Assembly: GCA_020348905.1 (NCBI GenBank) | Contig: CP070756.1 | Location: 1,554,311-1,618,310, forward strand | Direction of reading: 5' to 3' | DNA length: 64,000 nucleotides | From: Candidatus Zixiibacteriota bacterium | GTDB lineage: Bacteria > Zixibacteria > MSB-5A5 > GN15 > FEB-12 | Part shown: piece by piece, positions 7,089 to 60,232 of the stretch | Numbering within the stretch: the stretch's first letter is position 1 | How the letters are laid out: every line of letters starts with the position of its first letter | Program-made: the position numbers and the translations under genes | The notes under the pieces: model-generated | Told to the model about the DNA's origin: nothing | The model's input: only the letters and a program-made list of their open reading frames with translations | The model's database searches: none

Positions 7089-7116
7089 GGAACTTTATGC
7101 CTCTCCAAGGGTATTA
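7089..7116 (+). promoter_or_regulatory. Candidate ECF-type promoter upstream of the sigma factor gene
   Basis: GGAACTT, then 15 nt, then GTATTA (17 nt from the end of GGAAC to GTATTA). This resembles the AAC...CGT(A) ECF promoter architecture and ends about 32 nt before the ATG at 7148. Confidence 0.3.
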
Positions 7117-7147
7117 TTAGTAAGCGAACCGAGATACAGGTATACCT

Positions 7148-7750: not shown

Positions 7751-8402
7751 TGACGAACTCGATGGCCGCCACAGGCTGGCGATAAGCGAGCACCTTTCGA
7801 CCTGCTCGACTTGTCGCAAGGAAGCAGCTATATATAGTTCGTTGATGAAGTCGCGTTCGGAAATCGGGGATTTGAAAGTTTCCGATGATTTTAACGCCAA
7901 ACTCCTTAACCGCATCGCCCAGGAGCGTTTTGCGGAAACCCGTACCAGGGCTTATTTGCCCAGGACCGCCCCTAAGATAGTCTGGGGGAAGGCCGTGCCG
8001 GCCCTGGCAGCCGCCTGTCTGGTTCTTTTTGTCTCGGTAGTTGTATTCTCACCCGGTTTCAGGGAAGATACCGGTCTTTCGACATCATCGAGAGGTGAAC
8101 TGGACGATTCCTATCTCACCGTTCAACCGACCAACAACCCCAACCTGACCGTCAAGATGGATCAAGGGTGGTCGCTCAGCGATCACCTGGCCCGGGCCGA
8201 AAGAGTGAGTCAAATCTCCAGCAGCATGACGCAGGTAAACGGTGTGGACTGGCAGCGGTATTCGTCGGGACTCAGACAGGTTTCGGTAGACGCCGGCAGC
8301 CGCATTCCATACGTACCTTACTATTTCAAGATTCGTCCGGTTGTACGCGTTTACGGTTATCCCGCGGCGACGTCTGTTAAGGAGGTCACCGGAGTATATT
8401 AG
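7707..8402 (+). CDS. Anti-sigma factor, zf-HC2 type, single-pass membrane protein
   Basis: N-terminal CRKVRSYLSAYCSDEL...HLSTCSTCRKE (H-x3-C-x2-C), a TM segment AVPALAAACLVLFVSVVVF, GGAGGG SD, and a 44-nt overlap with the sigma gene. Confidence 0.75.
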   Translation: MRCRKVRSYLSAYCSDELDGRHRLAISEHLSTCSTCRKEAAIYSSLMKSRSEIGDLKVSDDFNAKLLNRIAQERFAETRTRAYLPRTAPKIVWGKAVPALAAACLVLFVSVVVFSPGFREDTGLSTSSRGELDDSYLTVQPTNNPNLTVKMDQGWSLSDHLARAERVSQISSSMTQVNGVDWQRYSSGLRQVSVDAGSRIPYVPYYFKIRPVVRVYGYPAATSVKEVTGVY

Positions 8403-44353: not shown

Positions 44354-44608
44354 CTAACCGAGTTGCTGTACGAATCGAGCCAGACGGGCCTTATTTCGGT
44401 CGGCGTTCTTCTTGTGAATCAAGCCATAAGCTACGGCTTTATCAAGCAACGACATGACCGAATTGTACTTAGCGACAGCCTCATCTTTGGCGGTCATGCT
44501 GCGCAATTCCCTGATGCTTGTACGCAACTGCGACCGGTAAGTCCGGTTGCGCAGCCGTTGCTGCTCGGAGGTCTTCATTCGCTTTTTACAGGACTTATGA
44601 TGCGGCAA
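44354..44608 (-). CDS. rpsT: 30S ribosomal protein S20
   Basis: 84-aa basic protein, MPHHKSCKKRMKTSEQQRLRNR...LDKAVAYGLIHKKNADRNKARL. Confidence 0.9.
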   Translation of the reverse strand: MPHHKSCKKRMKTSEQQRLRNRTYRSQLRTSIRELRSMTAKDEAVAKYNSVMSLLDKAVAYGLIHKKNADRNKARLARFVQQLG

Positions 44609-44678
44609 AATCTATCCTTTCAAAGGTTTCTAATTCACTCGACAGAATCAGACCGTAAAGATAAGCGGAAGATCAGAT

Positions 44679-46256: not shown

Positions 46257-48532
46257 TGATTCGCAAGTTTCCTTCAGTATTCCTGCTGATTTTCATCGTA
46301 ACCGGAATTGTCATGGCTGATCAGAGCCGGTGGCCTTCCTGGTTGTTTCTATTGGTGTGTCTGGTCCCGTGTCTGGGGGGATTTCTTGCTCTTACGTCCC
46401 CGCGAAAGATGCTCGCCACCGTTTTGTTCTGTTTTTCGTTGCTGGGTTTCTCGGCCTTTCGCTTTGCGGCCGGCTTCTATGACGCGGGCCCTAATCACAT
46501 TTCCAGTTTCGACCTCCCAGGCGGCAGTTACCACATCTATGGTGAAGTTTCCGATTGGCCAGACCTTCGCTCTGATCGTACCGAATTCAAAATCGCTATA
46601 GACTCCATTGTAGATTCCCGCTGCCATCGCCTCATCGGGTTTATATTGCTCCGGGTGTCAGATACCACTACTGCTTTGCAGCGCGGCGATCGGGTCGAAT
46701 TCCATGGGAGAATATATCCGGTGAGACAACAAGTTTCTCCGGGCTCGTTCGATTACGGGCGACACCTCAATATGAGAGGCGTATTCGGTATCGTCTACGT
46801 ACCGACTCTTCTCGACGTCCGGGTAGACCGGCGAAACCGGTATGGCTTTTTATCGATGATCGATCGGTTGCGCGATGCCATCAGGGCCAGCCTTTACCAG
46901 AACCTCTCATCAAGCAGTGCCGCCCTGGCCTCGGGCTTTCTGATTGGCGAAACCAGGGATATTCCAATCGATGTGTATCAGCGGTTTCGTGACTCAGGCA
47001 CCCTTCATCTTCTGGCGGTATCGGGTTCCAATGTTGCCCTGATAGTGGTATTTTTTGTGTTTCTTCTCCGCCCTTTGAAGATTGACCCGACCAGGCGGGC
47101 TCTGGTGCTTCTGGCCGTGATCCTGATTTTCGCCTTTCTTTCATATGGCGAACCATCGGTCGTCAGAGCCTCGGTCATGGCCGGGCTGATTATCGTGGCC
47201 GGCCTGCTTCACCGGCGGCACAATCTGAACAACATAATCGCCACGGCTGCCGCCATCATTCTGCTGGTCGATCCCGCCCAGCTTTTTGATGTCGGTTTTC
47301 AGTTGTCCTTCTGTATCGCCTGGGGACTAATATTCATCGTTCCCCGTGTGACAGAGTTCTTCAAACCGGTTCAAAGTCGCTGGTGGTACCGGTGGCTGCT
47401 TTTTCCGCTTCTGATATCGGTGATCGCTCAGATCTGTTCGATGGGTTTGATCGCTTATTACTTCGACCGCGTCCCGCTTATTTCTCCTCTGGCTAACCTG
47501 GTGGTGGTTCCAATCGTGTCGGCAGCGGTGATCGGGACCCTGATCCTCCTGGTAGCTAATCTCATTCTGCCGGTCTTGGCTTTGTTTTTCGGAGCATGGC
47601 TGAACCTTCTTCTGGAGTGTGTGCTGAAGCTGGTGGAAACTTTTGGTAGCGACACGATGCCGGCGCTAAGCGTAGTGAACATGCCAATGTGGGTGAACCT
47701 GTTAATTTATGCTTACATCTTTCTGGCCGCCTGGTCACTCGGCAAGAAGTATGTCCGACGTCTGGTACTGATTTCGCTTCTGATGCTGGCCAATCTGATT
47801 CTGCTGGTTCATGTTTTCGACGATGGGGCGGCTTATGGTGAGGCCGAGGTAACCCTCTTTAGTATCCCCGGTGGTGCGGCGGCGGTAGTGAAGCGGTTGG
47901 GCGGAAATGATGCCGATCTGATCATAACCGGCATCAGAGGGCGTAATTATCCGGTCGATGAAAGGATAATCGGACCATGCCTGGACGAACTCGGGGTGGT
48001 CCGTCTCGGAACCGTGTTCGTCTTATCTGCTGAATTCGATGCCATAGACGATGTTTTACGTCTGACCCGGACTTACCCCGGGAGCCGCCTGTATGTGGAA
48101 CGGAGCGATGAACCGAGTTTCAAAGACGTCATCGCGTCTGATACCGCCGGTGACAGTGGCTCGTCAATTTTGACTTTTGGAGACACTGTCGCCGAATATG
48201 ATCGCAAGGGAGCTTACTACTGTCCGACCGGATGGGGTTTGCTTTTATCTGTGAACGGTTCGAAGGTGTTCTTTTGTGATTATGTTTTGCCGGCACACTT
48301 GAATGCTGACACGAAACTTGAGGGTGCCGTGCTGGTTGTGGGTCAGACCTGGCGTTCGACCGGCGAAGACCTCGCTGGCATCCGCCGCCGGGGTTTCAGT
48401 CAGATCGTCTGTTCAAAAATAGCACAGCCGCGCTACCACGAGGAATCTATGTTCGGGCATCAGCCTCCAAGAGCGCTTCCGGTGAATGTCTACGACCTGA
48501 GCCGGCGTGGCAGGCTAACGCTGAATCTGTAA
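46256..48532 (+). CDS. comEC: ComEC/Rec2-family DNA internalisation channel protein
   Basis: N-terminal TM/OB region, competence domain (FRDSGTLHLLAVSGSNVALI...SFCIAWGLI). The C-terminal domain lacks the MBL HxHxDH motif. The ATG overlaps the murJ stop (TAATG). Confidence 0.8.
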   Translation: MIRKFPSVFLLIFIVTGIVMADQSRWPSWLFLLVCLVPCLGGFLALTSPRKMLATVLFCFSLLGFSAFRFAAGFYDAGPNHISSFDLPGGSYHIYGEVSDWPDLRSDRTEFKIAIDSIVDSRCHRLIGFILLRVSDTTTALQRGDRVEFHGRIYPVRQQVSPGSFDYGRHLNMRGVFGIVYVPTLLDVRVDRRNRYGFLSMIDRLRDAIRASLYQNLSSSSAALASGFLIGETRDIPIDVYQRFRDSGTLHLLAVSGSNVALIVVFFVFLLRPLKIDPTRRALVLLAVILIFAFLSYGEPSVVRASVMAGLIIVAGLLHRRHNLNNIIATAAAIILLVDPAQLFDVGFQLSFCIAWGLIFIVPRVTEFFKPVQSRWWYRWLLFPLLISVIAQICSMGLIAYYFDRVPLISPLANLVVVPIVSAAVIGTLILLVANLILPVLALFFGAWLNLLLECVLKLVETFGSDTMPALSVVNMPMWVNLLIYAYIFLAAWSLGKKYVRRLVLISLLMLANLILLVHVFDDGAAYGEAEVTLFSIPGGAAAVVKRLGGNDADLIITGIRGRNYPVDERIIGPCLDELGVVRLGTVFVLSAEFDAIDDVLRLTRTYPGSRLYVERSDEPSFKDVIASDTAGDSGSSILTFGDTVAEYDRKGAYYCPTGWGLLLSVNGSKVFFCDYVLPAHLNADTKLEGAVLVVGQTWRSTGEDLAGIRRRGFSQIVCSKIAQPRYHEESMFGHQPPRALPVNVYDLSRRGRLTLNL

Positions 48533-48677
48533 AAGGCTTATCACAAACCGTTTTATCTGACTATTGGCTCGATTTTGCAATTAAGAAATCGGCCTGTTTT
48601 CCCGATAATTATAGAGAAATATCCGACTGACGGAAGTCGGTGAATGACATCCTAAAGCGAAGGTTTGGGGACTACAA

Positions 48678-49880
48678 ATGAGTTTAGCCGGTAACTTAAA
48701 AACAGTCTCGTTTCCGGACATCCTGCAGCTGCTGGCTACGGGAAAGAAGACTGGCATATTGGAAGTAAAGACTTCAACGCGCCAGAAGGAAGTTGCCTTC
48801 AAAGACGGTAACATCATCTATGCTTCTTCGGTCAATACCACCGAAGACCTGCTCGGCAATATGCTACTTCGGCGCGGAAAGATCACCAAGTCTGATCTTG
48901 ATCGAGCTATATCACTGCACAAGCAGACCGGGCGACAGCTTGGCACCACCCTGATAGACATGAATCTGTTCCAGAAGGAAGATATTGCAGAGTGTCTTCG
49001 GCTCCAGATAGAGGAAATTGTCTACAACCTGTTCTCCTGGCAGGAGGGAGATTTCGTATTTCATGAAGGCTCTTCGCCCAGCAACGTACCGTTCTTGATC
49101 GAACTGAACACCATGAATGTCATCATGGAGGGGACGCGGAGAATCGACGAATGGATGGAGATTCAGAAAGTCCTTCCGCCCGATGATGTGGTTCTGGCGC
49201 TGGCCAAGTCACCCAAGGTTGCCAAAGAGGATATTTCGATTTCGCTTGAAGAGTTTCGGATCATGGCCCTGATCAACGGTGAAAGGACCCTGCCCGATCT
49301 GATCAACATTTCGCCCATGGGTGAGTTCGTCACCTGCCGGGCGATCTACCGGCTCATTGTCGGCAACCTCATCGAGGTTGTGGGCCGCAGAGAAGACAGT
49401 CCCGAGGAAAAAGAGGATGAAGAAGAAGTCATTCTGGGTGTCCTGTTTCACCTGTACAACAACTGCTTTTTCAAAATCAGAAGTCTGGTAGAATCAGTCC
49501 TGGGAGAGAGTAACAGCCGCTTCGTGGATTTCACCTCGCAGTATCGTAGCGGCGTTTTTACCTTTTTCCCCGGCGTCGACCCGTCTTCGGAGTTGTGTCC
49601 ATCGTTCGACAAGTTCGTAGCCGCCGTCCGCGCCTTTCCGATTGAGACACGCTACCACAAACTGATGTCGGGCCTGGAAAACATGCTGGCCGAACAGCTT
49701 GAATATGTCTTTCAGCTTTTGGGAGTGGGTATTTACCGTGAGGCTGCGGTGCAGGTGAAAAAGGAGATTTCCGAACCACTGGCCGTACGAAGGGAAATGG
49801 TTAAGAGATATGGAATCGACGACAGTTTTTATAAAACGATGAAGAGAGCTGAAAAAGTCGTCAAAATGGTAAGAGGGTAA
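48678..49880 (+). CDS. PATAN/DUF4388-domain protein with a helical insertion
   Basis: N-terminal LAGNLKTVSFPDILQLLATGKKTGILEV...VAFKDGNIIYASS is the DUF4388 signature. An inserted helical repeat pair resembles GspE-N/MshEN helices. The C-terminal ~150 aa is unassigned. Confidence 0.7.
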   Translation: MSLAGNLKTVSFPDILQLLATGKKTGILEVKTSTRQKEVAFKDGNIIYASSVNTTEDLLGNMLLRRGKITKSDLDRAISLHKQTGRQLGTTLIDMNLFQKEDIAECLRLQIEEIVYNLFSWQEGDFVFHEGSSPSNVPFLIELNTMNVIMEGTRRIDEWMEIQKVLPPDDVVLALAKSPKVAKEDISISLEEFRIMALINGERTLPDLINISPMGEFVTCRAIYRLIVGNLIEVVGRREDSPEEKEDEEEVILGVLFHLYNNCFFKIRSLVESVLGESNSRFVDFTSQYRSGVFTFFPGVDPSSELCPSFDKFVAAVRAFPIETRYHKLMSGLENMLAEQLEYVFQLLGVGIYREAAVQVKKEISEPLAVRREMVKRYGIDDSFYKTMKRAEKVVKMVRG

Positions 49881-49882
49881 AG

Positions 49883-50245
49883 ATGAGAAAGATATTAGGA
49901 TTGAGTGTCCTGAGCATTCTGGCAACAAGCGGCGACGCGACGGCGGCGAATTTAGCCGTCATTACCAGCCCGCCAACAATGCTCAAGTTTGTGGTCTTCG
50001 GCGTTGCCATTGGATGCCTGGTCGGCTCGGTGAAGCTTCTGTCAGTCCTGAAGGGAGGACTGCTGTTTAAGAGTTGGCAGAATATCATGTTCGGATTCGG
50101 AGTCCTGGCCGTGTCGCAACTGGCCGCCCTGCTCAGTGATTTCGAAGTGGTTAACCTGCCCGACTTCGTTTCACCGGCTCTCTGGGTAGTTGTATGCGGG
50201 CTCTTCCTTTACGGAATCTTTGAGGCCAAGAGAACCCTGGACTGA
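49883..50245 (+). CDS. Small membrane protein (signal/anchor plus 3 TM segments)
   Basis: 120-aa hydrophobic ORF starting 2 nt after the previous stop. No known family. Confidence 0.55.
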   Translation: MRKILGLSVLSILATSGDATAANLAVITSPPTMLKFVVFGVAIGCLVGSVKLLSVLKGGLLFKSWQNIMFGFGVLAVSQLAALLSDFEVVNLPDFVSPALWVVVCGLFLYGIFEAKRTLD

Positions 50246-50255
50246 AAATTATTAT

Positions 50256-50284
50256 ATTGACATAACTTGCTGTATTATATATAA
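50256..50284 (+). promoter_or_regulatory. Perfect consensus sigma-70 promoter in an AT-rich spacer
   Basis: TTGACA (50256-50261), 17 nt, TATAAT (50279-50284). An 8-nt direct repeat TAAGTTGA lies at 50296 and 50316, downstream of the -10 box. Confidence 0.55.
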
Positions 50285-50348
50285 TTATGGGCTAAGTAAG
50301 TTGATGTATTTGTCAATAAGTTGAAAACCAATAACTTCGAAGCTGCTG

Positions 50349-51209
50349 ATGATAAATGCTGTCGAAATAGACGAGCGAATTAGTAAGTGTCAGAAGATTT
50401 TGGACGTCGATCCAAACTCTCAAATCTTTGCCGCTCTGGCGGAAGCCTATCGTAAGAAGGGGGAGTTAGAGAAGGCTTTTCGCGTTTGCCAGAACGGTCT
50501 CAGAATTCATCCGTCTTACGGCTCGGCGCATGTTGTCATGGCCAAGATCAATCTTGACCGGCGCCTTTACGATTGGGCTGAAATCGAGGCCAGAAAGGCA
50601 TCCGAAATAGACGGTCTGACGCGGACTATCGAGCTGTTGCTGGCTGAAATATACATCTATAAGGGCGAATTCACGCAGGCCGTGAAACTGCTCAAGAAGC
50701 TCAACGAGGCTGATCCCAATAACGATCAGATCAAGAAACTGTTGGACATTGCTCAAAAGATACCCGAGGAGCAGACCCTGGTCATTGAGCAAGCGGCGCC
50801 GGAGCCGGGCGACGGGACAGGGCAAACCGACGAAGTCCCGGTGGCGGATGAACAAGCTACCCCGCAACGTTTGGGAGTCAGGGACGTGGTGGAGCAGGCG
50901 TTGAAGATAGGCGGGGTTCAGGGTGCGCTTCTGGTTAACTTTGAGGGTTTGATTGTAGACTCGGAATGGCGATTGTCTATGGATTCTTCGCTATGCAGCG
51001 CCACGCTGGGGGATGTTAGTAACCTGCTAAGTCAGGACCTGGTAAAAAGTTCTTTCGGAGACTTCTACACGGTACTAATCGAAGCTGCCAAGAACACTTT
51101 TTATCTGGTCCGCGTTCATAATGGTTTATTCCTGTTCGTTACCGATAGCAAGGCTAATCTGGGGACGATCAGAATGAAGGTTGAGAATTTGCTGATCTCG
51201 TATCAGTAA
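50349..51209 (+). CDS. TPR-repeat protein fused to a C-terminal Roadblock/LC7 (MglB-like) domain
   Basis: TPR helices at aa 20-135, an acidic/Pro linker, then VVEQALKIGGVQGALLVNFEGLIVDS...FYLVRVHNGLFLFVTDSKANLGTIRMKV, which follows the Roadblock pattern. Confidence 0.7.
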   Translation: MINAVEIDERISKCQKILDVDPNSQIFAALAEAYRKKGELEKAFRVCQNGLRIHPSYGSAHVVMAKINLDRRLYDWAEIEARKASEIDGLTRTIELLLAEIYIYKGEFTQAVKLLKKLNEADPNNDQIKKLLDIAQKIPEEQTLVIEQAAPEPGDGTGQTDEVPVADEQATPQRLGVRDVVEQALKIGGVQGALLVNFEGLIVDSEWRLSMDSSLCSATLGDVSNLLSQDLVKSSFGDFYTVLIEAAKNTFYLVRVHNGLFLFVTDSKANLGTIRMKVENLLISYQ

Positions 51210-51226
51210 ACAATAAAGGACAACTT

Positions 51227-52201
51227 ATGGAAATAAGCGGACGCATATCAAGGCAGATTCTGCTCCTATCGTTGCTGGTACTGCTGGTTTCGATGCTGAT
51301 ATTTCCTAAGAGATATGGGACGAATCTTGCCGACGCTCCTTTGATTTATGTCGTGGTTGAACTGGTTTTCTATGGATTCGTGATTTACCTGTTTAATAGA
51401 AGCCTCACCCCGCTGCAGCTGGTATCTTCGGCCGGTCTGTGCCTGATTTACCGATTTGCTCTTGGAGCAGCTCTTGGTATCGGCATCGTTGTCGTCTATC
51501 AGTGGCAGTTCAAAACAGCCCTGATAGCAGGCATGGGAAGTTATCTTCCGGGAATGCTGCTTCAAATAGTGGCGGCGCCTTTTATTCTGAAACCGGCTAT
51601 TGACGTTCTTTACGGTGGGCAGCCCAAGGCCAAACCGAAAGCTCCACCGAAACCCCAGAGTGCCTCCACCGATTCCTTAACCTCTATTGCCGCCTCGAAG
51701 AAGAAAGGTTACAGCCAGACGGGCCCGGCTTCGGTGGCCGAAGTGTTCGGGCCAGATGCGGCTTCGAGCCAGACCGGTTCCGTGGCCTCGACCGCCACCG
51801 AAGACAACGGATTCGACCGGGCCACCAGGTACATAGGCGAGGATGGATCGGTCCTGGTGGCAGCTGTAGTTGATGTTGATGGTTTACTGTTGGGCAATTT
51901 CAGCCGGCGGGGCGTCGATGCCGAGGACTGGGCTCCCTTCGCGCTGACTTTGGTGGAACAGAATCGGCAAGTGGTGACCCGGCTCGATCTGGATAAACCT
52001 GAAAAGATCGACATTGTACTCAACGACAAGAAAGTAATCGTTGCCTGCGAAGAGGCTTACTCGCTGATGGTCGTCGCCGACCGGGCAACCGATGATGTTC
52101 TTAATATTCGAATTAATCAGGGGCTTGAAATAATCAGAAAATATGTAGCTGAACGATATAGCGAAGAGCTTATCGGGAAGGTGGAGAAGACTTATGTATG
52201 A
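51227..52201 (+). CDS. Membrane-anchored (about 4 TM) protein with a C-terminal Roadblock/LC7 domain
   Basis: Hydrophobic N-terminal 125 aa, a Lys/Pro/Ser linker, then YIGEDGSVLVAAVVDVDGLLLGNF...KKVIVACEEAYSLMVVADRATDDVLNIRI. Confidence 0.7.
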   Translation: MEISGRISRQILLLSLLVLLVSMLIFPKRYGTNLADAPLIYVVVELVFYGFVIYLFNRSLTPLQLVSSAGLCLIYRFALGAALGIGIVVVYQWQFKTALIAGMGSYLPGMLLQIVAAPFILKPAIDVLYGGQPKAKPKAPPKPQSASTDSLTSIAASKKKGYSQTGPASVAEVFGPDAASSQTGSVASTATEDNGFDRATRYIGEDGSVLVAAVVDVDGLLLGNFSRRGVDAEDWAPFALTLVEQNRQVVTRLDLDKPEKIDIVLNDKKVIVACEEAYSLMVVADRATDDVLNIRINQGLEIIRKYVAERYSEELIGKVEKTYV

Positions 52202-52535
52202 CGTGTTGGACGGCTTGAACAAAACCACCGGTGTAACCGGGTCTATGGTGGTGGGAAATGACGGTATCGTCATTGCCGCCAATCTCGATGAATCGTTCGA
52301 GGGCGAGGCGATAGGTGCTCTGGCAGCGTCAATTACGACCAATATTCAGAAGTCACTTGACCGGCTGGAGTCGACGCCGCTGAAGCAGGTAACGATTGAA
52401 GCAGAGGAAGGAAAGCTATTTTTCACCGATGCCGGTCTGGGTATTCTGGTGGTGACCACCGAAAAGCAGGTGAATATCGGTTTGATTCGGCTGGAAATCA
52501 AGAATGCTATCAGTAAACTCAAAATAGCAGGGTAA
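52194..52535 (+). CDS. Stand-alone Roadblock/LC7 domain protein (MglC-like size)
   Basis: 113 aa: LNKTTGVTGSMVVGNDGIVIAANL...EEGKLFFTDAGLGILVVTTEKQVNIGLIRLEI. The start overlaps the upstream stop (ATGTATGA). Confidence 0.8.
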   Translation: MYDVLDGLNKTTGVTGSMVVGNDGIVIAANLDESFEGEAIGALAASITTNIQKSLDRLESTPLKQVTIEAEEGKLFFTDAGLGILVVTTEKQVNIGLIRLEIKNAISKLKIAG

Positions 52536-52564
52536 ACAATCTATAACACACAGGATCAAACAAT

Positions 52565-53656
52565 ATGGTTTCAATAAACTATTCATCGCGGGAAGTCTGT
52601 TGTAAGATTGTCTATTACGGTCCTGGTCTGTCCGGCAAGACGACCAATCTGCTTTACGTCCACTCTAAGGTACCCTCGGATACGCGCGGTAAGATGATTT
52701 CTCTGGCAACGGAAGCCGACCGAACCCTGTACTTCGACTTTCTGCCGATAAACATTGGCACGATTAACGGCTTTGCCGCCAAATTCCAGCTATACACCGT
52801 ACCCGGTCAGGTTTACTATAATGCGACCAGGAAACTGGTGCTGCGCGGCGTGGACGGAGTCGTATTCGTGGCCGACAGTCAGCCCGATAAGATGGAAGAA
52901 AACATCGAATCATTGGTCAACCTCGAGGAAAACCTCAGGGAATACGGTTATGATATCAATGATCTTCCCATGGTTATCCAGTATAACAAACGGGATCTTC
53001 CGGGGGTGATGGCGGTAGATGAACTCAACACCCGTCTCAATACACGGAATTTGCCTCATTTCGAGGCGTCGGCTACGATCGGTAACGGAGTATTCGACAC
53101 GCTCAAGTTGATAATCAAGCTGGTGCTGGAGAAGGCCAAGCGAAGTGCCACCGATCGAGCTCGACCGGATGTGAGTTATTCGGAGCCGGCCGCCGAGGCG
53201 CCTGTGCCGACTCCGGTTCAGCAGGAGCCGGATGAGGTTCCGTCAGCACCGTCAGAGCCGGCCGCACCGGAGCGGGTGCCGGTCGAACCATCACCGGTGA
53301 CAGCCGAGGCAGAGCCCGGCGGGCAGGCGGCGCGATCGACCGGGCCTATAAGTGTGGCACAGGCCGAACCCGTGGCCGAGGCTCCGGCGGAGCAGCCCGA
53401 ACCGTCCAGGTATCGTCCGTATCCGGGCGGTGAAAATCCGGAGGAATTGGACAAGAAGATTTCATCTGCAAGCTTTACACCTACCCGGCGGGAAGAAGCG
53501 GATGACAATGCGCCGGCCGCGGAAGTAGCCGGACTTAAGACCGGCCAGGACAGCGAAAGCGCCGACCTGTCCCGACCGGCAATGGCTCCTTCACTCAAGC
53601 GCCGCGGCGACAAGAAGAAGCGCGGTTTCTTTAAACGTTTGTTCGGTATTAAATAG
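52565..53656 (+). CDS. mglA: MglA-type Ras-like small GTPase with a ~170-aa disordered C-terminal extension ending in an amphipathic basic tail
   Basis: The first ~192 aa are near-collinear with Myxococcus MglA as I recall it (INYSSRE..CKIVYYGPGLSGKTTNL, DRTLYFDFLP, YTVPGQVYY, QYNKRDL). The tail is P/A/E-rich and ends KKKRGFFKRLFGIK. Confidence 0.9.
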   Translation: MVSINYSSREVCCKIVYYGPGLSGKTTNLLYVHSKVPSDTRGKMISLATEADRTLYFDFLPINIGTINGFAAKFQLYTVPGQVYYNATRKLVLRGVDGVVFVADSQPDKMEENIESLVNLEENLREYGYDINDLPMVIQYNKRDLPGVMAVDELNTRLNTRNLPHFEASATIGNGVFDTLKLIIKLVLEKAKRSATDRARPDVSYSEPAAEAPVPTPVQQEPDEVPSAPSEPAAPERVPVEPSPVTAEAEPGGQAARSTGPISVAQAEPVAEAPAEQPEPSRYRPYPGGENPEELDKKISSASFTPTRREEADDNAPAAEVAGLKTGQDSESADLSRPAMAPSLKRRGDKKKRGFFKRLFGIK

Positions 53657-53673
53657 TCATCCAGGAGGCTGAA

Positions 53674-54165
53674 ATGGCTGATAATAGTCTGATAATCTAT
53701 GAAGAAGAGATTAACCAAATCGACTCGTTGATTTCTAAGATGCTCAAAGGGGCCGAGGCAAAGTGCGCTCTCCTTGTCGACAAGGATGGTCACCTTATCA
53801 CCCGTCAGGGATTCACTCACTCCCTTGACACAACCGCTCTGGCCGCCCTGCTGGCAGGGTCATTCGCATCGACCAAGGAAATCGCACGGCTGGTCGGTGA
53901 GCCGGAGTTCTCGGTGCTGTTCCACCAGGGCAAGAAAGACCATATCCATATGTCGCTGGTCGGAGATCGGTCCATCCTCGTGGTCATATTCGATGACCGT
54001 ACGACGATCGGGATGGTGCGTTTGTATGCCAAGGAGACAGCGATCGAGTTGGGCAAGATCTTCGAGAAGATCAAAGAGCAGTCCGCCGATAAACCCAAGG
54101 CTGGCATTACCAGTGATTTCGCCAGTAAGGCTGAAGACAAGCTCGACGATATCTTCCAGGATTAG
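53674..54165 (+). CDS. mglB: MglB-type Roadblock/LC7 GTPase-activating protein
   Basis: YEEEINQIDSLI...ALLVDKDGHLITRQG...DTTALAALLAG...FHQGKKDHIHMSLVG...VVIFDDRTTIGMVRLYAKE plus an acidic C-tail, collinear with Myxococcus MglB as I recall it. AGGAGG SD. Confidence 0.85.
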   Translation: MADNSLIIYEEEINQIDSLISKMLKGAEAKCALLVDKDGHLITRQGFTHSLDTTALAALLAGSFASTKEIARLVGEPEFSVLFHQGKKDHIHMSLVGDRSILVVIFDDRTTIGMVRLYAKETAIELGKIFEKIKEQSADKPKAGITSDFASKAEDKLDDIFQD

Positions 54166-54227
54166 CGCTGTTTCCGTTACTTAAACAAGTGCGTCGGTAA
54201 ACCCGTTTACATCGAGTTGCAAGGATT

Positions 54228-55928
54228 ATGTCTTCTGAACTTAGTGCGATGCTGGTCAAGGCCGGCAAAATCACGCCGGAGCAAGCTGAAAAAGCTCTGG
54301 CCATGGTCAAAGAGAAGGGCGAGAATTTTGAGCAGGCCTTGATAAAGGTCGGTGCCGCCGACTCAGAAGATGACATTGCCAAGTTTATCGGCAAGCACCT
54401 GAAAATCGGAGCCCTGCGTCTCTCCGACGTCGAACTCAACCCGGACATTGTAAAGCTGATTCCGCTCGATATCGCACGCAAATTCAAAGTCGTCGCGGTA
54501 TCCAAACTCAACAAGACTCTGCTGGTAGCCATCAGTGATCCCAACAATATTTATGTCCTCGATGCCATAAAGTTCATCACGGGATGTACCGTGCAGCCGG
54601 TTATATCTCCCGAGAAGGCAATCGAAAAGGCTATTGAGACCTACTATACCAATGCCGACGGTCTCTCGGAGTTGGTCCGCGGTCTGGAAGAGGATTCGGA
54701 TCTGGAAGTAGTCTCCGACGAGGAAACGCCCAGCGAATCGGACCTCCTCTCGCAGATTCAGGACAAGCCGCTGGTCAAGCTCGTCGATTCTATTATTGCC
54801 GACGCCATTCGTATAGGGGCGTCCGATATTCATTTCGAAATGTATGAAAAACGAATCCGGGTGCGATATCGTGTTGACGGTGACCTGCGAGAGATGGCAC
54901 CGCTGCCGTTTAAGTATCGGGCCGCCATTGTATCGCGTATCAAGATTATGGCCGAACTGGATATTTCCGAGCGTCGTCTGCCGCAGGACGGCCGCATCAA
55001 GATTAAGATTGCCGGGCGAACGGTCGACCTTCGTGTCTCGGTCCTGCCGACCATATTCGGCGAGAAGGTGGTTATGCGTATTCTGGACCCGATGGCTCTG
55101 ATGGTGGACATGACCAAGCTGGGGTTCAGGGAAGATGACCTGAAAAAGTTCAACGAAAAAATCCATCTGCCCTACGGCATTATTCTGGTCACCGGGCCGA
55201 CCGGTTCGGGTAAAACGACCACCCTTTATTCGGCTCTGAAGCAGATCAATACCGTTGATGTCAATATCATGACTGCCGAGGACCCGGTCGAGTTCAACTT
55301 CGACGGCATCAATCAGGTGGCCGTCAAGTCCGACATCGGCATGACCTTCGCCGCCTCACTTCGTTCCTTCCTTCGTCAGGACCCTGACATCATAATGGTT
55401 GGTGAGATTCGTGACGGCGAAACGGCCGAGATCGCCATCCGAGCCGCCCTGACGGGTCACCTGGTGTTTTCGACCCTGCACACCAACGACGCCCCCTCAT
55501 CGATTAACCGGCTTATCGACATGGGTGTACCTCACTACCTGGTTGCTTCGGCTACGAAGATGATTATGGCTCAGCGAATGATGCGCAAGATTTGCCAGAG
55601 CTGCAAAGAAGAGGTCAACCTCACCCAGGAACAGGTTGAAAGCCTTGGTGTTACCAAAGACATACTGCGCAATATCAGGGCTTTTCGGGGAGTGGGCTGC
55701 AGTGACTGCAATGACACCGGCATGTCGGGTCGAACCGGTATCTATGAGGTTATGCCTATAACATCCGAAATGGAGGCACACATTCTTTCCAGGTCGACCG
55801 ATACAGAGATCCGTGAGACGGCCCTGAAACAGGGCATGTACAGCCTTCGGATGGCCGCCGTCGATAAAATGAAGCAGGGCATAGTTTCTATCGATGAGGT
55901 CTTCTCGGTGACCTCTGCCGGCTCCTGA
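54228..55928 (+). CDS. pilB: Type IV pilus assembly ATPase PilB (GspE family)
   Basis: N-terminal T2SSE_N helices, Walker A GPTGSGKTTTLYS, Asp/His boxes and the tetracysteine CQSC...CSDC. Confidence 0.9.
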   Translation: MSSELSAMLVKAGKITPEQAEKALAMVKEKGENFEQALIKVGAADSEDDIAKFIGKHLKIGALRLSDVELNPDIVKLIPLDIARKFKVVAVSKLNKTLLVAISDPNNIYVLDAIKFITGCTVQPVISPEKAIEKAIETYYTNADGLSELVRGLEEDSDLEVVSDEETPSESDLLSQIQDKPLVKLVDSIIADAIRIGASDIHFEMYEKRIRVRYRVDGDLREMAPLPFKYRAAIVSRIKIMAELDISERRLPQDGRIKIKIAGRTVDLRVSVLPTIFGEKVVMRILDPMALMVDMTKLGFREDDLKKFNEKIHLPYGIILVTGPTGSGKTTTLYSALKQINTVDVNIMTAEDPVEFNFDGINQVAVKSDIGMTFAASLRSFLRQDPDIIMVGEIRDGETAEIAIRAALTGHLVFSTLHTNDAPSSINRLIDMGVPHYLVASATKMIMAQRMMRKICQSCKEEVNLTQEQVESLGVTKDILRNIRAFRGVGCSDCNDTGMSGRTGIYEVMPITSEMEAHILSRSTDTEIRETALKQGMYSLRMAAVDKMKQGIVSIDEVFSVTSAGS

Positions 55929-56077
55929 TTTCCCCAAAATAAATTCCTTGTCAGGCAACAGCTTAAGGCCTGATTTTGGCCGATTTTCTTTCAAGATTCG
56001 CGGTTATCTTCCGATAATAATGGAAAACAGCGATTCTGTATAGATTCGAGAACAATATAGCGATCTGGAGATAATCC

Positions 56078-57151
56078 ATGGTATCCCTGCGTGAACTGTT
56101 GGAGCAGATGGTTAAGATGGGTGCCTCCGACTTGCATCTTACGGTGGGTTCTCCACCGGTTGTACGGGTGGATGGCAAGTTGCAGAGGCTGGATCACGAC
56201 ATCCTGACCAGTGAACAGACCAAGAAAATTTCATACTCCATGCTCAACGAGAAGCAGAAGCAGAAATTTGAGCAGAACTCCGAACTTGACTTCTCGTTCG
56301 GAATCGAGCAAATGAGCCGTTTCAGATGCAACATGTTCATGCAGCGCGGAAATGTTGCGGTTGCTCTTCGCCAGATTCCTTACAAGATAATGTCGTTCGA
56401 AGAGCTTGGTCTTCCCAAAGTGGTGGCCGACTTCTCCAAGCTGCCGCGCGGGCTGGTGCTCGTTACCGGTCCGACCGGTTCAGGTAAGTCGACGACACTG
56501 GCGTCGATCATCGATAAAATCAATCGTGAGCGCCCGGTCCATATAATCACCGTCGAAGATCCGATCGAGTACCTGCATCGTCATCAGCAGGCGTTGATTA
56601 ACCAGCGAGAGGTATACTCCGACACGACTTCGTTTGCGGCGGCTCTGAAGTACGCCCTGCGTGAGGATCCGGATGTGGTTCTGATAGGCGAGATGCGTGA
56701 TCTGGAGACAATCGAGGCGGCCCTGTCGATATCGGAAACGGGACACCTGGCTTTTGCCACCCTCCACACCAACTCGGCCTCGGAGTCGATCAACCGTATT
56801 ATTGACGCTTTTCCCACCAATCAGCAGGAGCAGATACGGATTTCGCTGTCGTTCACTCTGCAGGCTATCCTGTCACAGACCCTGATTCCCAAGATAGGCG
56901 GCGGACGGGTGCTGTCGATGGAGATCCTGGTTGTCACGCCCGCCATCAGGGCCCTGATTCGCGACGACAAGGTCCATCAGATCTACTCCATGATTCAATC
57001 GGGACAGAAGTTCGGTATGAAGACGATGAATCAATCGCTGTCTGAATTGTATCAGACGGGAAAGATTACAATAAACGATGCTATGAGCTACAGTCACAAT
57101 CCTCAGGAGTTGAGCGAATCGTTGTCGAAACAGAAAACTGCGGCTTTTTAG
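56078..57151 (+). CDS. pilT: Type IV pilus retraction ATPase PilT
   Basis: GASDLHL, GPTGSGKSTTLAS, the AALREDPDV-like region ALREDPDVVLIGEMRD, and GHLAFATLHTNSA. Confidence 0.95.
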   Translation: MVSLRELLEQMVKMGASDLHLTVGSPPVVRVDGKLQRLDHDILTSEQTKKISYSMLNEKQKQKFEQNSELDFSFGIEQMSRFRCNMFMQRGNVAVALRQIPYKIMSFEELGLPKVVADFSKLPRGLVLVTGPTGSGKSTTLASIIDKINRERPVHIITVEDPIEYLHRHQQALINQREVYSDTTSFAAALKYALREDPDVVLIGEMRDLETIEAALSISETGHLAFATLHTNSASESINRIIDAFPTNQQEQIRISLSFTLQAILSQTLIPKIGGGRVLSMEILVVTPAIRALIRDDKVHQIYSMIQSGQKFGMKTMNQSLSELYQTGKITINDAMSYSHNPQELSESLSKQKTAAF

Positions 57152-57180
57152 CCGAAGCTGTGATAAGAAAGGATTAAGCA

Positions 57181-58380
57181 GTGCCAGTTTTTGAATATAA
57201 AGGTAAGACTCTCGCCGGCGCCGCTGTTAAAGGCGAGCTTAAGGCTAACAGTCGAGCCGACCTGGAGCGTGTCCTCCGGCAAAACCGGATTATGGTGACG
57301 TCAATCACCAAGAAGGCGCCGGAGATACAAATCAAAATCGGCACCGGTGTCAAGCGAATCGAGGTTTCTCGGTTCACCCGGCAGTTCGCCACCATGATCG
57401 GCGCCGGGCTACCGATGGTGCAGTGTCTGGACATTCTCGCCACGCAGATGGAAAATAAGGAGTTGGCCAAGATCGTTCAGCAGGTGAAGGATTCCGTGCA
57501 GGGTGGCGCTACCCTGTCGGAGGCCCTGGCGCGCCATCCCAAAATATTCGACCAGCTGTATACCAACATGGTTGAGGCCGGTGAGGTAGGCGGTGCTCTC
57601 GACGCTATTCTAAACCGACTGGCTCTCTATCGGGAAAAAGCCGACCGGCTGGTCCGCAAGGTTAAAGGCGCCATGGTCTATCCGTCGGTGGTTTGTGTCG
57701 TGGCGATAGCCGTTACAATCGGTATGCTGGCTTTTATCGTGCCGGTGTTCGCCAAGATGTTTGGAGGCCTGGGAGCGGAATTGCCGAAACCGACTCAGGT
57801 CGTACTGGGAATATCAAACTTCCTGAAAAGCAATATCGGGACAATAATATTCGGCACCCTGGGCGGCCTGGGAATTTTCATATGGTGGAAACGGACGCCA
57901 TCGGGTGCGCTGCTCTGGGACAGATTCCTGCTTTCCTCGCCGATACTGGGAAACCTCATAAGAAAATCGTCGATTGCCCGTTTCACGCGTACCCTGGGCA
58001 CGCTGCTGGCATCGGGTGTCTCCATCCTGGAAGCGCTGGAGATAACCGCCAAGACCGCCGGCAACCTGATCGTGGCTAACGCGATTAACAAGTCGGTGCT
58101 TTCGATCGCCGAGGGTGATACCATTACCAGTCCTTTGAAGGAGACCGGTGTATTCCCTCCGATGGTAACCCAGATGATAGCGGTCGGTGAAAAGACCGGC
58201 GGCCTTGACGAGATGCTCAACAAGATCGCCGATTTCTACGATGAGGAGGTCGACGAGGCGGTATCCGCCCTGACATCGGTTATCGAGCCGATCATCATCG
58301 TGGTTATGGGTGTCGTTATCGGTGGCATCCTGATCGCCATGTACCTGCCGATGTTCGACATCATTGGCAAGATTGGATGA
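57181..58380 (+). CDS. pilC: Type IV pilus platform protein PilC (GspF family)
   Basis: Duplicated GspF domains (FTRQFATMIGAGLPMVQCL / FTRTLGTLLASGVSILEAL) and 3 TM segments. GTG start. Confidence 0.9.
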   Translation: MPVFEYKGKTLAGAAVKGELKANSRADLERVLRQNRIMVTSITKKAPEIQIKIGTGVKRIEVSRFTRQFATMIGAGLPMVQCLDILATQMENKELAKIVQQVKDSVQGGATLSEALARHPKIFDQLYTNMVEAGEVGGALDAILNRLALYREKADRLVRKVKGAMVYPSVVCVVAIAVTIGMLAFIVPVFAKMFGGLGAELPKPTQVVLGISNFLKSNIGTIIFGTLGGLGIFIWWKRTPSGALLWDRFLLSSPILGNLIRKSSIARFTRTLGTLLASGVSILEALEITAKTAGNLIVANAINKSVLSIAEGDTITSPLKETGVFPPMVTQMIAVGEKTGGLDEMLNKIADFYDEEVDEAVSALTSVIEPIIIVVMGVVIGGILIAMYLPMFDIIGKIG

Positions 58381-58410
58381 TGGCAGACCAGACGAAGACT
58401 ATCACTTTGT

Positions 58411-58437
58411 ACGGCGCCGGGGGGCGCCGTTACTTTT
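58411..58437 (+). terminator. Hairpin plus T-run between pilC and the kinase gene
   Basis: ACGGCGCC-gggg-GGCGCCGT followed by TACTTTT, directly abutting the ATG at 58438. Confidence 0.45.
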
Positions 58438-60141
58438 ATGTATAGCAGAGAGGTTCTCAACAAGATCGGATGGTTCCTGCCGCTGAGACTGGCACAATAT
58501 ATTGTGCTGTTCGCAGTGGTGGTGTTCTGGATGGGCTACCCGCGGTTCATGCAGCCGCAGTTCGTCTTGTACTCCATCTGTACGCTCGGTTTTGCGGTGC
58601 TGATGGCGGCCGGTCGAAAGCACCGGTTGAAGAACGTCACAGCCACCATAATCGGTCTGCAGTTTCTGTTCGAGATTGTTCTGGAATCAAGCATCATTTA
58701 CTCGACCGGAAATGTCAATTCGCCGTTCTCCGCGCTGTTTATTCTCACTATCGTTTCCGCCGCCCTTACCTATCGCCTTCTGGGCACGCTGGTGACAGCA
58801 TCGCTGGTATCGGTCGCGTATGCCTTCATCATCTGGTTGGGACTGTCAAGGGGTCAGGATTACGAAATATCGATGCGAACCCTCAAAACCATCTTCTCCT
58901 CGGGTGACAGCGCTTTCTACTCGATATTTCTTCATATTCTCATCTTCTACCTGGTGGCGTTTATATCGGGTTACCTGGCCGAACGCCTCAAGGAGCGCGA
59001 TCGCCAGTTGGCTGACACTTCGCTGGCGCTGAAGAAGGCGAAACTTGAAACCGACGACATCCTCAGACATCTTAACTCCGGGCTTCTGACCGTCGACGCC
59101 AAGGGAATCGTCATATTTTTTAATCGGGCCGCCGAAAGGATACTGGGTTACCGCGAAGAAGACGTCAAAGGTATGCACTGTCGGGAAGCGTTCTCGCAAC
59201 GAATGCCCGAGCTGGCCAGCCGCCTGATGGACGGGATAGAACATCGCCTGGAGCACCCACGGGTCGAAATTGAAATCGTCGGGGCCGAAGGCGCCGTTGT
59301 CCCGCTGGGACTGTCGACATCGATTCTGACCGAGGAGGGCCTGGGGATGAGGGGGATTATTGCCATCTTTTCGGATCTCACCGAAGCAAAGCGCCTTGAA
59401 GCGAAAATGAGGACGGCCGACAGGCTGGCCGTGGTTGGCGAACTGTCCGCCTCGATTGCACACGAAATACGCAATCCGCTCGCGGCTATTTCCGGTTCGG
59501 TGGAGGTGCTCAAGAATGACCTGAAAGTCTCCGATGAAAATGAGCGGCTGATGAACCTGATCGTGAAAGAGTCTGACCGGCTAACGAAAATTCTTACCGA
59601 GTTTCTTTTATATGCCAGGATCGACCGTACCGCTTACAACAAGGTTGAACTCTGTCACCTGGTAGGCGAAGTGATTGAAATGCTTTACCATAATCGGTCG
59701 CTTGAATCAAGAGTCGATTTCAGGGTAGAGTCGGATGAGTCCATAATCTACGTGGTAGGCGACGAAGACCTGATCAAGCAACTGCTGCTGAATCTGGCTG
59801 TCAACGCCTGCGAATCATTCGAAGACATGGACGGCCAGGTCACTTTTCGTCTGACTGTCAATCATCCGGAAAACCGGGTGGAGTTGCGTGTTCAGGACAA
59901 CGGGCCCGGTATCCCGGCCGACAACATCAAGAAGATATACCAGCCGTTCTTTTCGACCAAGAAGGAGGGGACGGGCCTGGGGCTTTCCATTGTTCACCGC
60001 ATCTGCTCAGCTCTCAAGCTGAGGATGGAAGTATTGTCTGAAGAAGGTGTTGGCACCACCTTTGTGGTCGAATTTGACACTTTCGTTCAGGAAACGCCGT
60101 CGCCGGTCGAATCAATCCCCCCATCGTGCGGCAGCCACTGA
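58438..60141 (+). CDS. Membrane sensor histidine kinase, PilS-like architecture (multi-TM, PAS, HisKA, HATPase)
   Basis: About 6 N-terminal TM segments, PAS (LLTVDAKGIVIFFNRAAERILGY), H-box SASIAHEIRNPL, and N/G boxes (DNGPGIP, GTGLGLSIV). Confidence 0.8.
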   Translation: MYSREVLNKIGWFLPLRLAQYIVLFAVVVFWMGYPRFMQPQFVLYSICTLGFAVLMAAGRKHRLKNVTATIIGLQFLFEIVLESSIIYSTGNVNSPFSALFILTIVSAALTYRLLGTLVTASLVSVAYAFIIWLGLSRGQDYEISMRTLKTIFSSGDSAFYSIFLHILIFYLVAFISGYLAERLKERDRQLADTSLALKKAKLETDDILRHLNSGLLTVDAKGIVIFFNRAAERILGYREEDVKGMHCREAFSQRMPELASRLMDGIEHRLEHPRVEIEIVGAEGAVVPLGLSTSILTEEGLGMRGIIAIFSDLTEAKRLEAKMRTADRLAVVGELSASIAHEIRNPLAAISGSVEVLKNDLKVSDENERLMNLIVKESDRLTKILTEFLLYARIDRTAYNKVELCHLVGEVIEMLYHNRSLESRVDFRVESDESIIYVVGDEDLIKQLLLNLAVNACESFEDMDGQVTFRLTVNHPENRVELRVQDNGPGIPADNIKKIYQPFFSTKKEGTGLGLSIVHRICSALKLRMEVLSEEGVGTTFVVEFDTFVQETPSPVESIPPSCGSH

Positions 60142-60232
60142 CGCCATCTTTTGTCAAAATAATTTGCACTTGTTTTTTCACCATCAATGTATAACTTAGA
60201 AAACTATTAATAACCAAGAGGGAGACGCCTAA

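Follow-up and report, generated by a model that had tools for sequence, protein, structure and literature searches.

MglA and MglB serve as the model for how a Ras-like switch sets polarity in bacteria, and nearly everything understood of the mechanism comes from Myxococcus, where the roles of partner proteins, such as that of the guanine nucleotide exchange factor (GEF), are disputed. The Myxococcus xanthus module comprises MglA, MglB, MglC, RomR/RomX and RomY, and GTP-bound MglA stimulates type IVa pili (T4aP) through the TPR effector SgmX (PMC11580455). According to a 2026 study, RomRX is not a GEF, and MglB has both GTPase-activating protein (GAP) and GEF properties (PMC13408092). Here, we analyse a 64-kb stretch of Candidatus Zixiibacteriota DNA (contig CP070756.1; hereafter the window, whose positions serve as coordinates), in which ten genes encode, in order, a PATAN protein, a small membrane protein (mem120), a fusion of TPR repeats to a Roadblock domain (TPR-Robl), a fusion of four transmembrane (TM) segments to a Roadblock domain (TM-Robl), a stand-alone Roadblock protein (Robl113), MglA, MglB and the type IV pilus (T4P) proteins PilB, PilT and PilC. 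We consider it probable, though some way from certain, that this MglA/MglB–Roadblock switch is co-expressed with the T4aP motor and regulates it. We know of no cultured member of the Zixibacteria; the locus nevertheless presents a compact, phylum-wide and apparently co-transcribed version of the switch, and with it a defined parts list for reconstitution.

Much of the M. xanthus module is recognizable in the window. The G domain of MglA aligns closely, as does MglB including its C-terminal region, and both systems combine further Roadblock protein with a TPR component and probably act on T4aP. The differences lie in layout and in partners. Whereas the M. xanthus genes are scattered, those of the window appear to be operonic with pilBTC, in the order mglA–mglB; in place of a soluble MglA of about 195 AA there is one with a 168-AA tail and a MinD-like end; the extra Roadblock proteins do not appear to be MglC orthologues; the TPR part is short (about 150 AA) and fused to a Roadblock domain, unlike SgmX; and no RomR, RomX or RomY was seen among the roughly 20 open reading frames (ORFs) of the window that were scanned.

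In Bdellovibrio, a TPR protein is a partner in the control of T4P by MglA and RomR. This system and MglA/MglB of Thermus thermophilus are examples of an MglA-family switch acting on T4P outside the Myxococcales (PMC3983030), although both are without extra Roadblock proteins, an MglA tail or an operon fusion to pilBTC, and Bdellovibrio is without MglB. The Streptomyces conservons (CvnA–D) likewise unite a membrane component, a Roadblock protein and an MglA-family GTPase in one operon, and the CvnB-type Roadblock structures 3kye and 3leq are among the best matches to the proteins studied here; in conservons, however, the membrane component is histidine-kinase-like, the GTPase is a Group 2 MglA, and pilus genes, PATAN and TPR are missing. 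A further parallel is offered by the Ragulator–Rag system with its LAMTOR proteins and by the Asgard Roadblock proteins, in that several Roadblock folds, one of them membrane-anchored, occur beside a small GTPase, and the best fold matches include both LAMTOR2 and Asgard Roadblock. Yet the membrane part in the window is a four-TM region fused to Roadblock rather than a lipidated LAMTOR1, and there are no Rag-type GTPase–Roadblock fusions; we regard the likeness as one of architecture only. Finally, the PATAN protein recalls the cyanobacterial regulators PatA, PixE and PixG and the PATAN–mglB neighbourhoods, with which it shares the PATAN domain, interrupted by an α-helical insertion, the association with mglA/mglB and, in the T4P motor, a documented target of PATAN. 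It differs from them in having a conserved C-terminal stretch of 240 AA in place of a receiver domain, an insert that scores above the cut-off for an MshE-type motif, and a gene paired with that of a small membrane protein.

A first-pass annotation of the window, made from its letters alone, held this composition to be undescribed, which is true in part. The literature searched yielded no account of the fusions TPR-Robl and TM-Robl, of an operon link to pilBTC or of an MglA with an anchor, whereas PATAN genes adjoining mglA/mglB were reported by Wuichet and Søgaard-Andersen in 2014 (PMC4316618); passages in that paper and in PMC11580455 attribute the adjacency to Makarova 2006. Compared with that literature, what is new is the use of TPR– and four-TM–Roadblock fusions as conserved partners of MglA, the apparent operon fusion to pilBTC, and the predicted MglA anchor together with the breadth of the tailed class, while every domain family, the control of T4P by MglA and the PATAN–mgl neighbourhood were known already.

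Roadblock proteins and a conserved gene neighbourhood

A six-frame ORF list places the ten genes on the plus strand between 48678 and 58380 (Table 1), at the coordinates given by the first-pass annotation, with intergenic gaps of, in order, 2, 103, 17, −8 (an overlap), 29, 17, 62, 149 and 29 nt. Since nearly all long ORFs of the window lie on this strand, their co-directionality is unremarkable. GC skew is positive from position 1 to 64000, which fits a single leading-strand segment of a replichore. For each of the ten, protein-level conservation extends over some 53–85 related loci, and they are thus not chance ORFs. The first-pass annotation had read them as a PATAN/DUF4388 protein, a 120-AA membrane protein, a TPR and a four-TM fusion to Roadblock, a 113-AA Roadblock protein whose start overlaps the preceding stop, an MglA-type GTPase with intact G motifs, an MglB-type protein and pilB, pilT and pilC, that is, as one GTPase and four Roadblock-domain proteins directly upstream of the pilus genes, and had made conservation in related genomes a test of its reading. 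All of these calls are borne out, by Pfam, NCBIfam and PDB profile matches, by AlphaFold2 models searched with Foldseek, by hydropathy, by the measured gaps and by the gene order of related species, as set out below.

The three products of 50349–52535 belong to the Roadblock/LC7 superfamily, Robl113 on the evidence of Pfam and the two fusions on that of their modelled structures. Robl113 matches Pfam Robl_LC7 (PF03259) with 51.3 bits, over the cut-off of 23, whereas the two fusions stay under this gathering score, TPR-Robl at 19.8 and TM-Robl at 18.8 bits; a precomputed PF03259 match is present in some homologues of these weakly scoring fusions. The weak calls were settled by AlphaFold2 models, built on alignments of 33 homologues for each protein, together with Foldseek. 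TPR-Robl (mean pLDDT 81) consists of TPR helices at AA 4–148, with repeats also matched by Pfam, a disordered linker at AA 147–171 and a Roadblock domain at AA 177–283, while TM-Robl consists of a TM region at AA 1–130 with four TM segments according to hydropathy, a basic disordered linker at AA 132–192 and a Roadblock domain at AA 195–311 (pLDDT about 90). Both Roadblock domains are modelled in the order α-β-β-α-β-β-β-α with a pLDDT of about 85–93. Searched against the PDB with Foldseek, they returned Roadblock-fold proteins only, with a probability of 1.00, a target TM-score of 0.75–0.85 and a root-mean-square deviation of 1.4–2.4 Å. The matches were LAMTOR2, an Asgard Roadblock protein and MglB for TPR-Robl, and CvnB-type 3kye, Asgard Roadblock 7yh1 and MglB 6hjm for TM-Robl, with Asgard Roadblock 9jue and MglB 6izw among the further structures matched by the fusion domains. 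The predicted structures thus confirm that the C-terminal domains of both fusions are Roadblock folds. The TM region of TM-Robl gave no meaningful match in a relaxed Pfam scan.

Profile–profile comparison of the four Roadblock families identified the Roadblock domain of TPR-Robl and Robl113 as the closest pair (HHalign 97%, E 1.6e-11); the family nearest to TM-Robl is also Robl113 (75%, E 2.6e-5), and MglB is distinct from the three extra families. The family profile of Robl113 matches Asgard Roadblock proteins with E values of 1e-16 to 1e-14 (1.6e-16 for 7yh1), compared to 2e-4 for MglB, 3e-4 for LAMTOR2 and 0.014 for MglC (7ct3). With a profile so much nearer to Asgard Roadblock than to MglC, Robl113 was rejected as an MglC orthologue, although a similar role is possible, and the extra Roadblock proteins are best classed as generic Roadblock proteins. 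Roadblock proteins act as dimers (PMC10933270). The start of the Robl113 gene overlaps the TM-Robl stop by 8 nt, and in each of the 77 loci compared the two genes overlap by 8–20 nt. Such an invariant overlap suggests joint production of TM-Robl and Robl113, which may pair with each other.

A scan of the species representatives of GTDB located 130 loci, 80 of which were retrieved and searched by tblastn with 15 proteins of the window. Wherever the contig is long enough, all 80 have the same order, as do three further loci (L003, L004 and L086): S20 (minus strand), MurJ, ComEC, PATAN, mem120, TPR-Robl, TM-Robl, Robl113, MglA, MglB, PilB, PilT, PilC, a PilS-like kinase and PpiC. Even the most divergent members, in which TM-Robl identity is down to 33–35%, keep this order, and the 717 homologues of TPR-Robl carry labels that are nearly all Zixibacteria. 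The arrangement, identical in every related species examined, is ancient and phylum-wide in Zixibacteria.

More distant loci hold parts of the same module. In three loci of a high-GC lineage (L087, L088 and L091) the order is TPR-Robl, Robl, tailed MglA and MglB; the MglA tail has a TM end in L087 and L091, a large PATAN–TPR–β-propeller protein follows MglB in two of the three, and no pil genes are nearby. The TPR-Robl and Robl proteins of this lineage align collinearly with those of the window (E 2e-22 and 9e-17, respectively), and a homologue search with TPR-Robl of L087, of limited word-index sensitivity, gave 7 matches. Another locus, L085, has the order TPR, PATAN, tailed MglA and MglB; there, the gene ahead of PATAN (6015–8135) encodes 706 AA in which TPR-like regions are combined with several hydrophobic segments and a stretch rich in Cys (CxxC), and 725 nt without a called gene separate the PATAN gene from mglA. 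The full order from PATAN to PilS, pilBTC included, is found in a more distant relative, L090, where the downstream flank differs and the counterpart of TM-Robl is a soluble Roadblock protein of 133 AA with 29% identity to AA 192–312 (E 9e-12). Judged from these five loci, the core (TPR-Robl, Robl, tailed MglA and MglB, often with PATAN) appears older and wider than the Zixibacteria, the link to pilBTC is common to the Zixibacteria and at least one relative (L090), and the TM anchor on a Roadblock protein looks to be a later addition of the Zixibacteria.

As for the pilus genes, PilB is identified by TIGR02538 (704.3 bits, cut-off 675.65) and also matches PF00437 and PF05157, PilT is identified by TIGR01420 (506.1 bits, cut-off 319.1) and PilC by two T2SSF domains (PF00482 twice, 226.5 bits), while the NCBIfam PilC models scored 490 and 417 bits, under their equivalog cut-offs of 700. 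Downstream of pilC lies the gene of the PilS-like histidine kinase (6TM_PilS, PAS, HisKA and HATPase; 58438–60141); no PilR-type response regulator adjoins it, the next gene encoding a PpiC-type isomerase.

A tailed MglA with a predicted membrane anchor

MglA aligns with the M. xanthus MglA structure 5ymx over AA 3–194 (E 1.3e-80), including all four motifs (GPGLSGKT, DRTLYFDF, TVPGQ and NKRD), and bears the signature of the family, namely a P-loop GxxxxGK[ST], an Arg finger in switch I, TxxGQ instead of DxxGQ, and N/TKxD. Similarly, MglB aligns over AA 5–162 with M. xanthus MglB (6izw_B, E 8e-40) and matches Robl_LC7 (PF03259, 51.5 bits); with the NCBIfam equivalog of the Thermus type (NF052242) it scores 99.4 bits, under the cut-off of 200. 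The mglB gene starts 17 nt past mglA, a gap that is also the median and that varies between 13 and 23 nt in 70 of 70 loci.

At 363 AA, and 311–399 AA in its orthologues, MglA exceeds the single-domain norm of about 195 AA and is, to judge by its sequence, a tailed variant of the family. The G domain (AA 1–195) is followed by a disordered tail of 168 AA (AA 196–363) rich in P, A, E and S. Such P/A/S/E-rich tails, of 116–204 AA, are present in 71 of 71 orthologues, and only three islands within them are conserved: YRPYPG (54 of 69 orthologues), P-x-MAPSL-basic (65 of 69; PAMAPSLKRR in the window) and the C-terminus KKRGFFKRLFG[IL][KR] (67 of 69), with the near-invariant end KKRGFFKRLFGIK. A relaxed Pfam scan of the tail gave no meaningful match, and weak NCBIfam matches to GltJ-like or FtsN-like domains were dismissed as Pro-rich low complexity.

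In the window, the protein ends in the amphipathic motif KKKRGFFKRLFGIK, which closely resembles that of MinD. The membrane-targeting sequence of E. coli MinD is KGFLKRLFGG (PMC5471200); the end of MglA, RGFFKRLFGIK (net charge +4), is identical to it at 7 of 10 positions and conservative at 2 more, both C-termini are basic, aromatic and amphipathic, and their helical hydrophobic moments are 0.40 (MglA) and 0.45 (MinD). From this likeness and the similar moments, we predict that MglA is tethered to the membrane via its C-terminal helix. The predicted anchor is here borne by an MglA-type GTPase and not by a ParA/MinD ATPase, and the resemblance is probably convergent. The first-pass annotation, which had looked to the novel fusions for an anchoring role, overlooked this predicted anchor on MglA itself, although such a role is plausible for the four-TM fusion.

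Tailed MglA proteins also occur elsewhere. An exhaustive HMMER search returned 6,797 MglA-like cluster representatives, the best 150 of which are 255–717 AA long, many of them with 300–700 AA and a low-complexity tail. Among 105 of these best 150, the C-terminus is a similar basic and aromatic motif in at least 39, while at least 14 have a hydrophobic, TM-like segment there instead, counts that are lower bounds on clusters and not frequencies, as the ranking favours long low-complexity tails like that of the query. Some of the long-tailed representatives carry the basic and aromatic motif internally, and one TM-tailed cluster is labelled Planctomycetota. Hence, long-tailed and apparently anchored MglA proteins seem to be common in metagenomes. 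No description of an anchored or tailed MglA class was found in the literature searched, and the 2014 survey of prokaryotic small GTPases, which covered single-domain proteins, makes no mention of membrane anchors on them.

The variable disordered linker between the G domain and the anchor is laid out like the hypervariable region of Ras, although, in contrast to eukaryotic Ras and Rho, no lipid modification is involved here. This leads us to propose, tentatively and as a minority reading of the data, that MglA proteins with a long hypervariable linker and a membrane anchor, which is a MinD-like helix in some and a tail-anchor TM segment in others, make up a large unrecognized class of bacterial small GTPases that operate on membrane-attached platforms of Roadblock dimers and that, in Zixibacteria, are hard-wired to the T4P motor. 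With the same reserve, the layout of this class may be viewed as a bacterial counterpart of both hypervariable-region anchoring of Ras and Ragulator. A recent view holds that C-terminal membrane-targeting extensions of small GTPases arose during eukaryogenesis (PMC10933270). If our proposal is true, the tethering of Ras-superfamily switches to membranes by C-terminal extensions is no eukaryotic invention, and if the bacterial MglA tails do bind membranes, bacteria arrived at an analogous solution, a question on which the hundred-odd related tailed clusters bear.

Transcription, mechanism and alternative explanations

A σ70-type promoter-like site (TTGACA-17-TATAAT) precedes the start codon of TPR-Robl by 63 nt and is a perfect match in the window (12/12). 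A match of at least 10/12 occurs 61–67 nt from the TPR-Robl ATG in 86% of 81 loci, compared to 0–6% for control matches upstream of PATAN, TM-Robl, MglA, PilB, PilT and PilS, and the −35 and −10 boxes form conserved columns in the alignment of this spacer. Downstream of it most gaps are short (median 12 nt between TPR-Robl and TM-Robl, 29 nt between Robl113 and MglA and 27 nt between PilT and PilC), while longer spacers precede TPR-Robl (85–116 nt), PilB (32–97 nt) and PilT (median 147 nt). The spacer between mglB and pilB contains no conserved element in the intergenic alignment. A hairpin (ΔG −10 or lower) with a T-run follows Robl113, mglB, pilB or pilT in 0–2 of 54–73 loci (1/68 for mglB) and pilC in 23/52, where the stem sequences vary by species. 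The spacer between pilB and pilT contains TTCAAG-17-GATAAT, both hexamers of which recur in 90% or more of 51 loci, and this element may be an internal promoter or an operator.

These promoter and terminator signals are consistent with a transcript that starts at about 50.29 kb and runs on into the pil genes. The main transcript would extend from there through pilC, possibly with an internal promoter for pilT–pilC, and PATAN and mem120, which are separated by a median of 3 nt and by no more than 30 nt in 99% of 79 loci, would form a separate pair. With one promoter between this pair and TPR-Robl and a promoter-like element before pilT, the ten genes are probably not one transcription unit; the conserved element ahead of pilT also led us to soften a reading of the locus as a single operon under a single promoter. 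An Rfam scan of the whole window found no RNA family at threshold, and therefore no riboswitch in the 5′ leader.

The PATAN protein, encoded upstream of the promoter, may provide an additional input. PF14332 matches the PATAN protein with 122.5 bits at AA 4–159, and since profile positions 1–121 are stretched over this segment, an insert is implied, which is α-helical and located at AA 52–112. It matches the cyclic di-GMP (c-di-GMP) MshE-related motif NF053729 with 47.8 bits, over the cut-off of 38, as well as the solved c-di-GMP-binding modules of Thermus PilF (6f8l), Vibrio MshE (5htl) and PilB (9g1w), and is most readily classed as an MshEN-type module. Mean column identity of the PATAN protein is 0.87 in 76 orthologues, the insert being conserved like the rest of the domain. 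The MshEN motif was reportedly defined by Wang et al. in 2016 as a tandem RLGxx(L/V/I)(L/V/I)xxG...Q; in the PATAN protein the first motif reads LLGNMLL, without Arg, and the second RQLGTTLI, with the Arg shifted by one, and both are conserved. The conserved C-terminal segment of about 240 AA has no Pfam match even at E 10, and the protein has no match to Response_reg and thus no CheY-like receiver domain of the PatA type at its C-terminus. Its companion mem120 has 3–4 hydrophobic segments and no family match in Pfam, NCBIfam or a relaxed Pfam scan. In Synechocystis, PATAN domains bind PilB1 and PilC (bioRxiv 10.1101/2021.06.11.447907).

We envisage that the C-terminal helix tethers MglA to the cytoplasmic membrane via its flexible linker, and that the three extra Roadblock proteins assemble into one dimer or two, which would constitute a membrane-attached and TPR-bearing platform that localizes or gates MglA. 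Candidate pairs are TM-Robl with Robl113, whose genes overlap, and TPR-Robl with Robl113, the closest paralogues, or both, although any specific pairing is doubtful at present. The MglB dimer would inactivate MglA and may contribute to nucleotide exchange as well, in keeping with PMC13408092. Together with the TPR arm, MglA-GTP would then recruit or activate PilB and PilT and thereby direct extension and retraction to a defined site of the cell, comparable to MglA and SgmX, while the PATAN protein, possibly in response to c-di-GMP, could act as a second input by contacting PilB or PilC as in Synechocystis. With regard to evolution, an older core would have been joined to pilBTC in the Zixibacteria and a relative, with the TM anchor added by the Zixibacteria.

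It should be noted that several observations weigh against a switch that is co-expressed with the pilus motor and controls it. S20, MurJ, ComEC, the PilS-like kinase and PpiC, which flank the module, are just as syntenic as the module itself, and synteny alone is thus no proof of a functional link. Outgroup core modules have no adjoining pil genes, some of them lying near fliM/fliN instead, so the core has no inherent tie to pili. The scans for promoters and terminators rely on consensus patterns, and the element ahead of pilT suggests that independent expression of pilT and pilC is possible as well. Whether the PATAN protein binds c-di-GMP is uncertain, as its first MshEN motif has LLG where RLG is expected and hence no canonical Arg. 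More generally, we infer how the genes are transcribed, that MglA binds membranes, how its GTPase is regulated, which Roadblock proteins pair and whether c-di-GMP is bound.

Some of these points lend weight to the strongest rival explanation, that the neighbourhood has no functional meaning, the gene order being frozen, and that the module steers another polar process such as the placement of the division site, a different motility or secretion apparatus, or envelope growth. The equal conservation of the whole 15-gene block and the occurrence of homologous core modules away from pil genes are what it would lead one to expect, and the neighbourhoods of Group 1 MglA are known to vary widely (Wuichet & Søgaard-Andersen, PMC4316618). 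However, against an arrangement without meaning stand a conserved promoter before TPR-Robl and none before pilB, an mglB–pilB spacer of 32–97 nt that is devoid of conserved elements and nearly always free of a terminator-like hairpin, and the retention of the mgl–pilBTC link in the distant locus L090 despite its different downstream flank; moreover, both MglA and PATAN have been tied experimentally to T4P motors in other bacteria. We therefore consider this explanation unlikely, and favour control of the pilus motor by the adjoining switch.

A further possibility, which we regard as improbable in its strict form, is that the module serves chiefly in DNA uptake, the motor and ComEC making up a competence locus positioned by MglA/MglB. 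T4P motors drive DNA uptake in many bacteria, and the gene of ComEC, the DNA-uptake channel (46256–48532), lies directly upstream of PATAN in all loci, L090 included, a placement that hints at a possible connection of the pilus genes with competence. Yet ComEC is tightly coupled to murJ instead, whose stop its start overlaps (median gap 5 nt in the loci), while the spacer between ComEC and PATAN ranges from 57 to 1389 nt, and the block contains no further competence gene; a role in competence would, besides, be compatible with control of the motor by the switch. Equally improbable is the proposal of the first-pass annotation that, with no RomR/RomX-like gene in sight, one or more of the Roadblock fusions are the missing GEF, for although none was seen among the ORFs scanned and Roadblock/longin dimers are GEF platforms in eukaryotes (PMC10933270), the absence pertains to about 20 ORFs of the window rather than to the whole genome, its premise is disputed by the reported properties of RomRX and MglB (PMC13408092), and neither sequence nor fold tells a GEF from a scaffold here.

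Feature coordinates and further observations

Table 1. Genes, domains and sequence elements of the MglA–Roadblock–pilus locus, given as positions in the 64-kb window
Feature	Coordinates	Strand	Evidence
PATAN protein, 400 AA	48678..49880	+	PF14332, 122.5 bits
α-helical insert of PATAN domain, AA 52–112	48831..49013	+	NF053729; 6f8l, 5htl and 9g1w matches
mem120, 120-AA membrane protein	49883..50245	+	Hydropathy; gap after PATAN gene 2–3 nt
σ70-type promoter-like site TTGACA-17-TATAAT	50257..50285	+	12/12 consensus positions
TPR-Robl fusion, 286 AA	50349..51209	+	Pfam TPR, AlphaFold2, Foldseek
Roadblock domain of TPR-Robl, AA 177–283	50877..51197	+	AlphaFold2, Foldseek
TM-Robl, four-TM–Roadblock fusion, 324 AA	51227..52201	+	Hydropathy, AlphaFold2, Foldseek
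Roadblock domain of TM-Robl, AA 195–311	51809..52159	+	AlphaFold2, Foldseek
Robl113, stand-alone Roadblock protein, 113 AA	52194..52535	+	Robl_LC7, 51.3 bits
MglA-type GTPase, 363 AA	52565..53656	+	5ymx match, four G motifs
G domain of MglA, AA 1–195	52565..53149	+	5ymx match
Disordered tail of MglA, AA 196–363	53150..53656	+	P/A/E/S-rich
MinD-like amphipathic motif of MglA	53612..53653	+	Likeness to MinD targeting sequence
MglB, 163 AA, Roadblock GAP with C-terminal helix region	53674..54165	+	6izw_B match
PilB, T4aP extension ATPase with N-terminal MshEN domain	54228..55928	+	TIGR02538
TTCAAG-17-GATAAT element, pilB–pilT spacer	55990..56018	+	Hexamers kept across loci
PilT, retraction ATPase	56078..57151	+	TIGR01420
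PilC, inner-membrane platform protein	57181..58380	+	PF00482 twice
Intrinsic-terminator-like hairpin ACGGCGCC-GGGG-GGCGCCGT with T-run	58411..58430	+	30 nt past pilC stop

Gene order in the block that corresponds to 44354–62011 is unusually rigid in loci L005–L084, even at 30–50% protein identity. Many genome records with a cluster of the Zixibacteria type (L008, L009, L011, L013–L016, L030, L063 and others) bear the title ‘uncultured Ignavibacteriales’, ‘Calditrichota’, ‘GN15’ or ‘Candidatus Deferrimicrobium’, which is probably not the lineage that the DNA comes from. Upstream of the block, at 41366–44077, the window encodes an M28 peptidase of 903 AA with a C-terminal pair of dockerin-like repeats (GDADGSG...LDILD and SDADGSC...LDVLD), the orthologue of which in L004 has a weak match to Dockerin_1.

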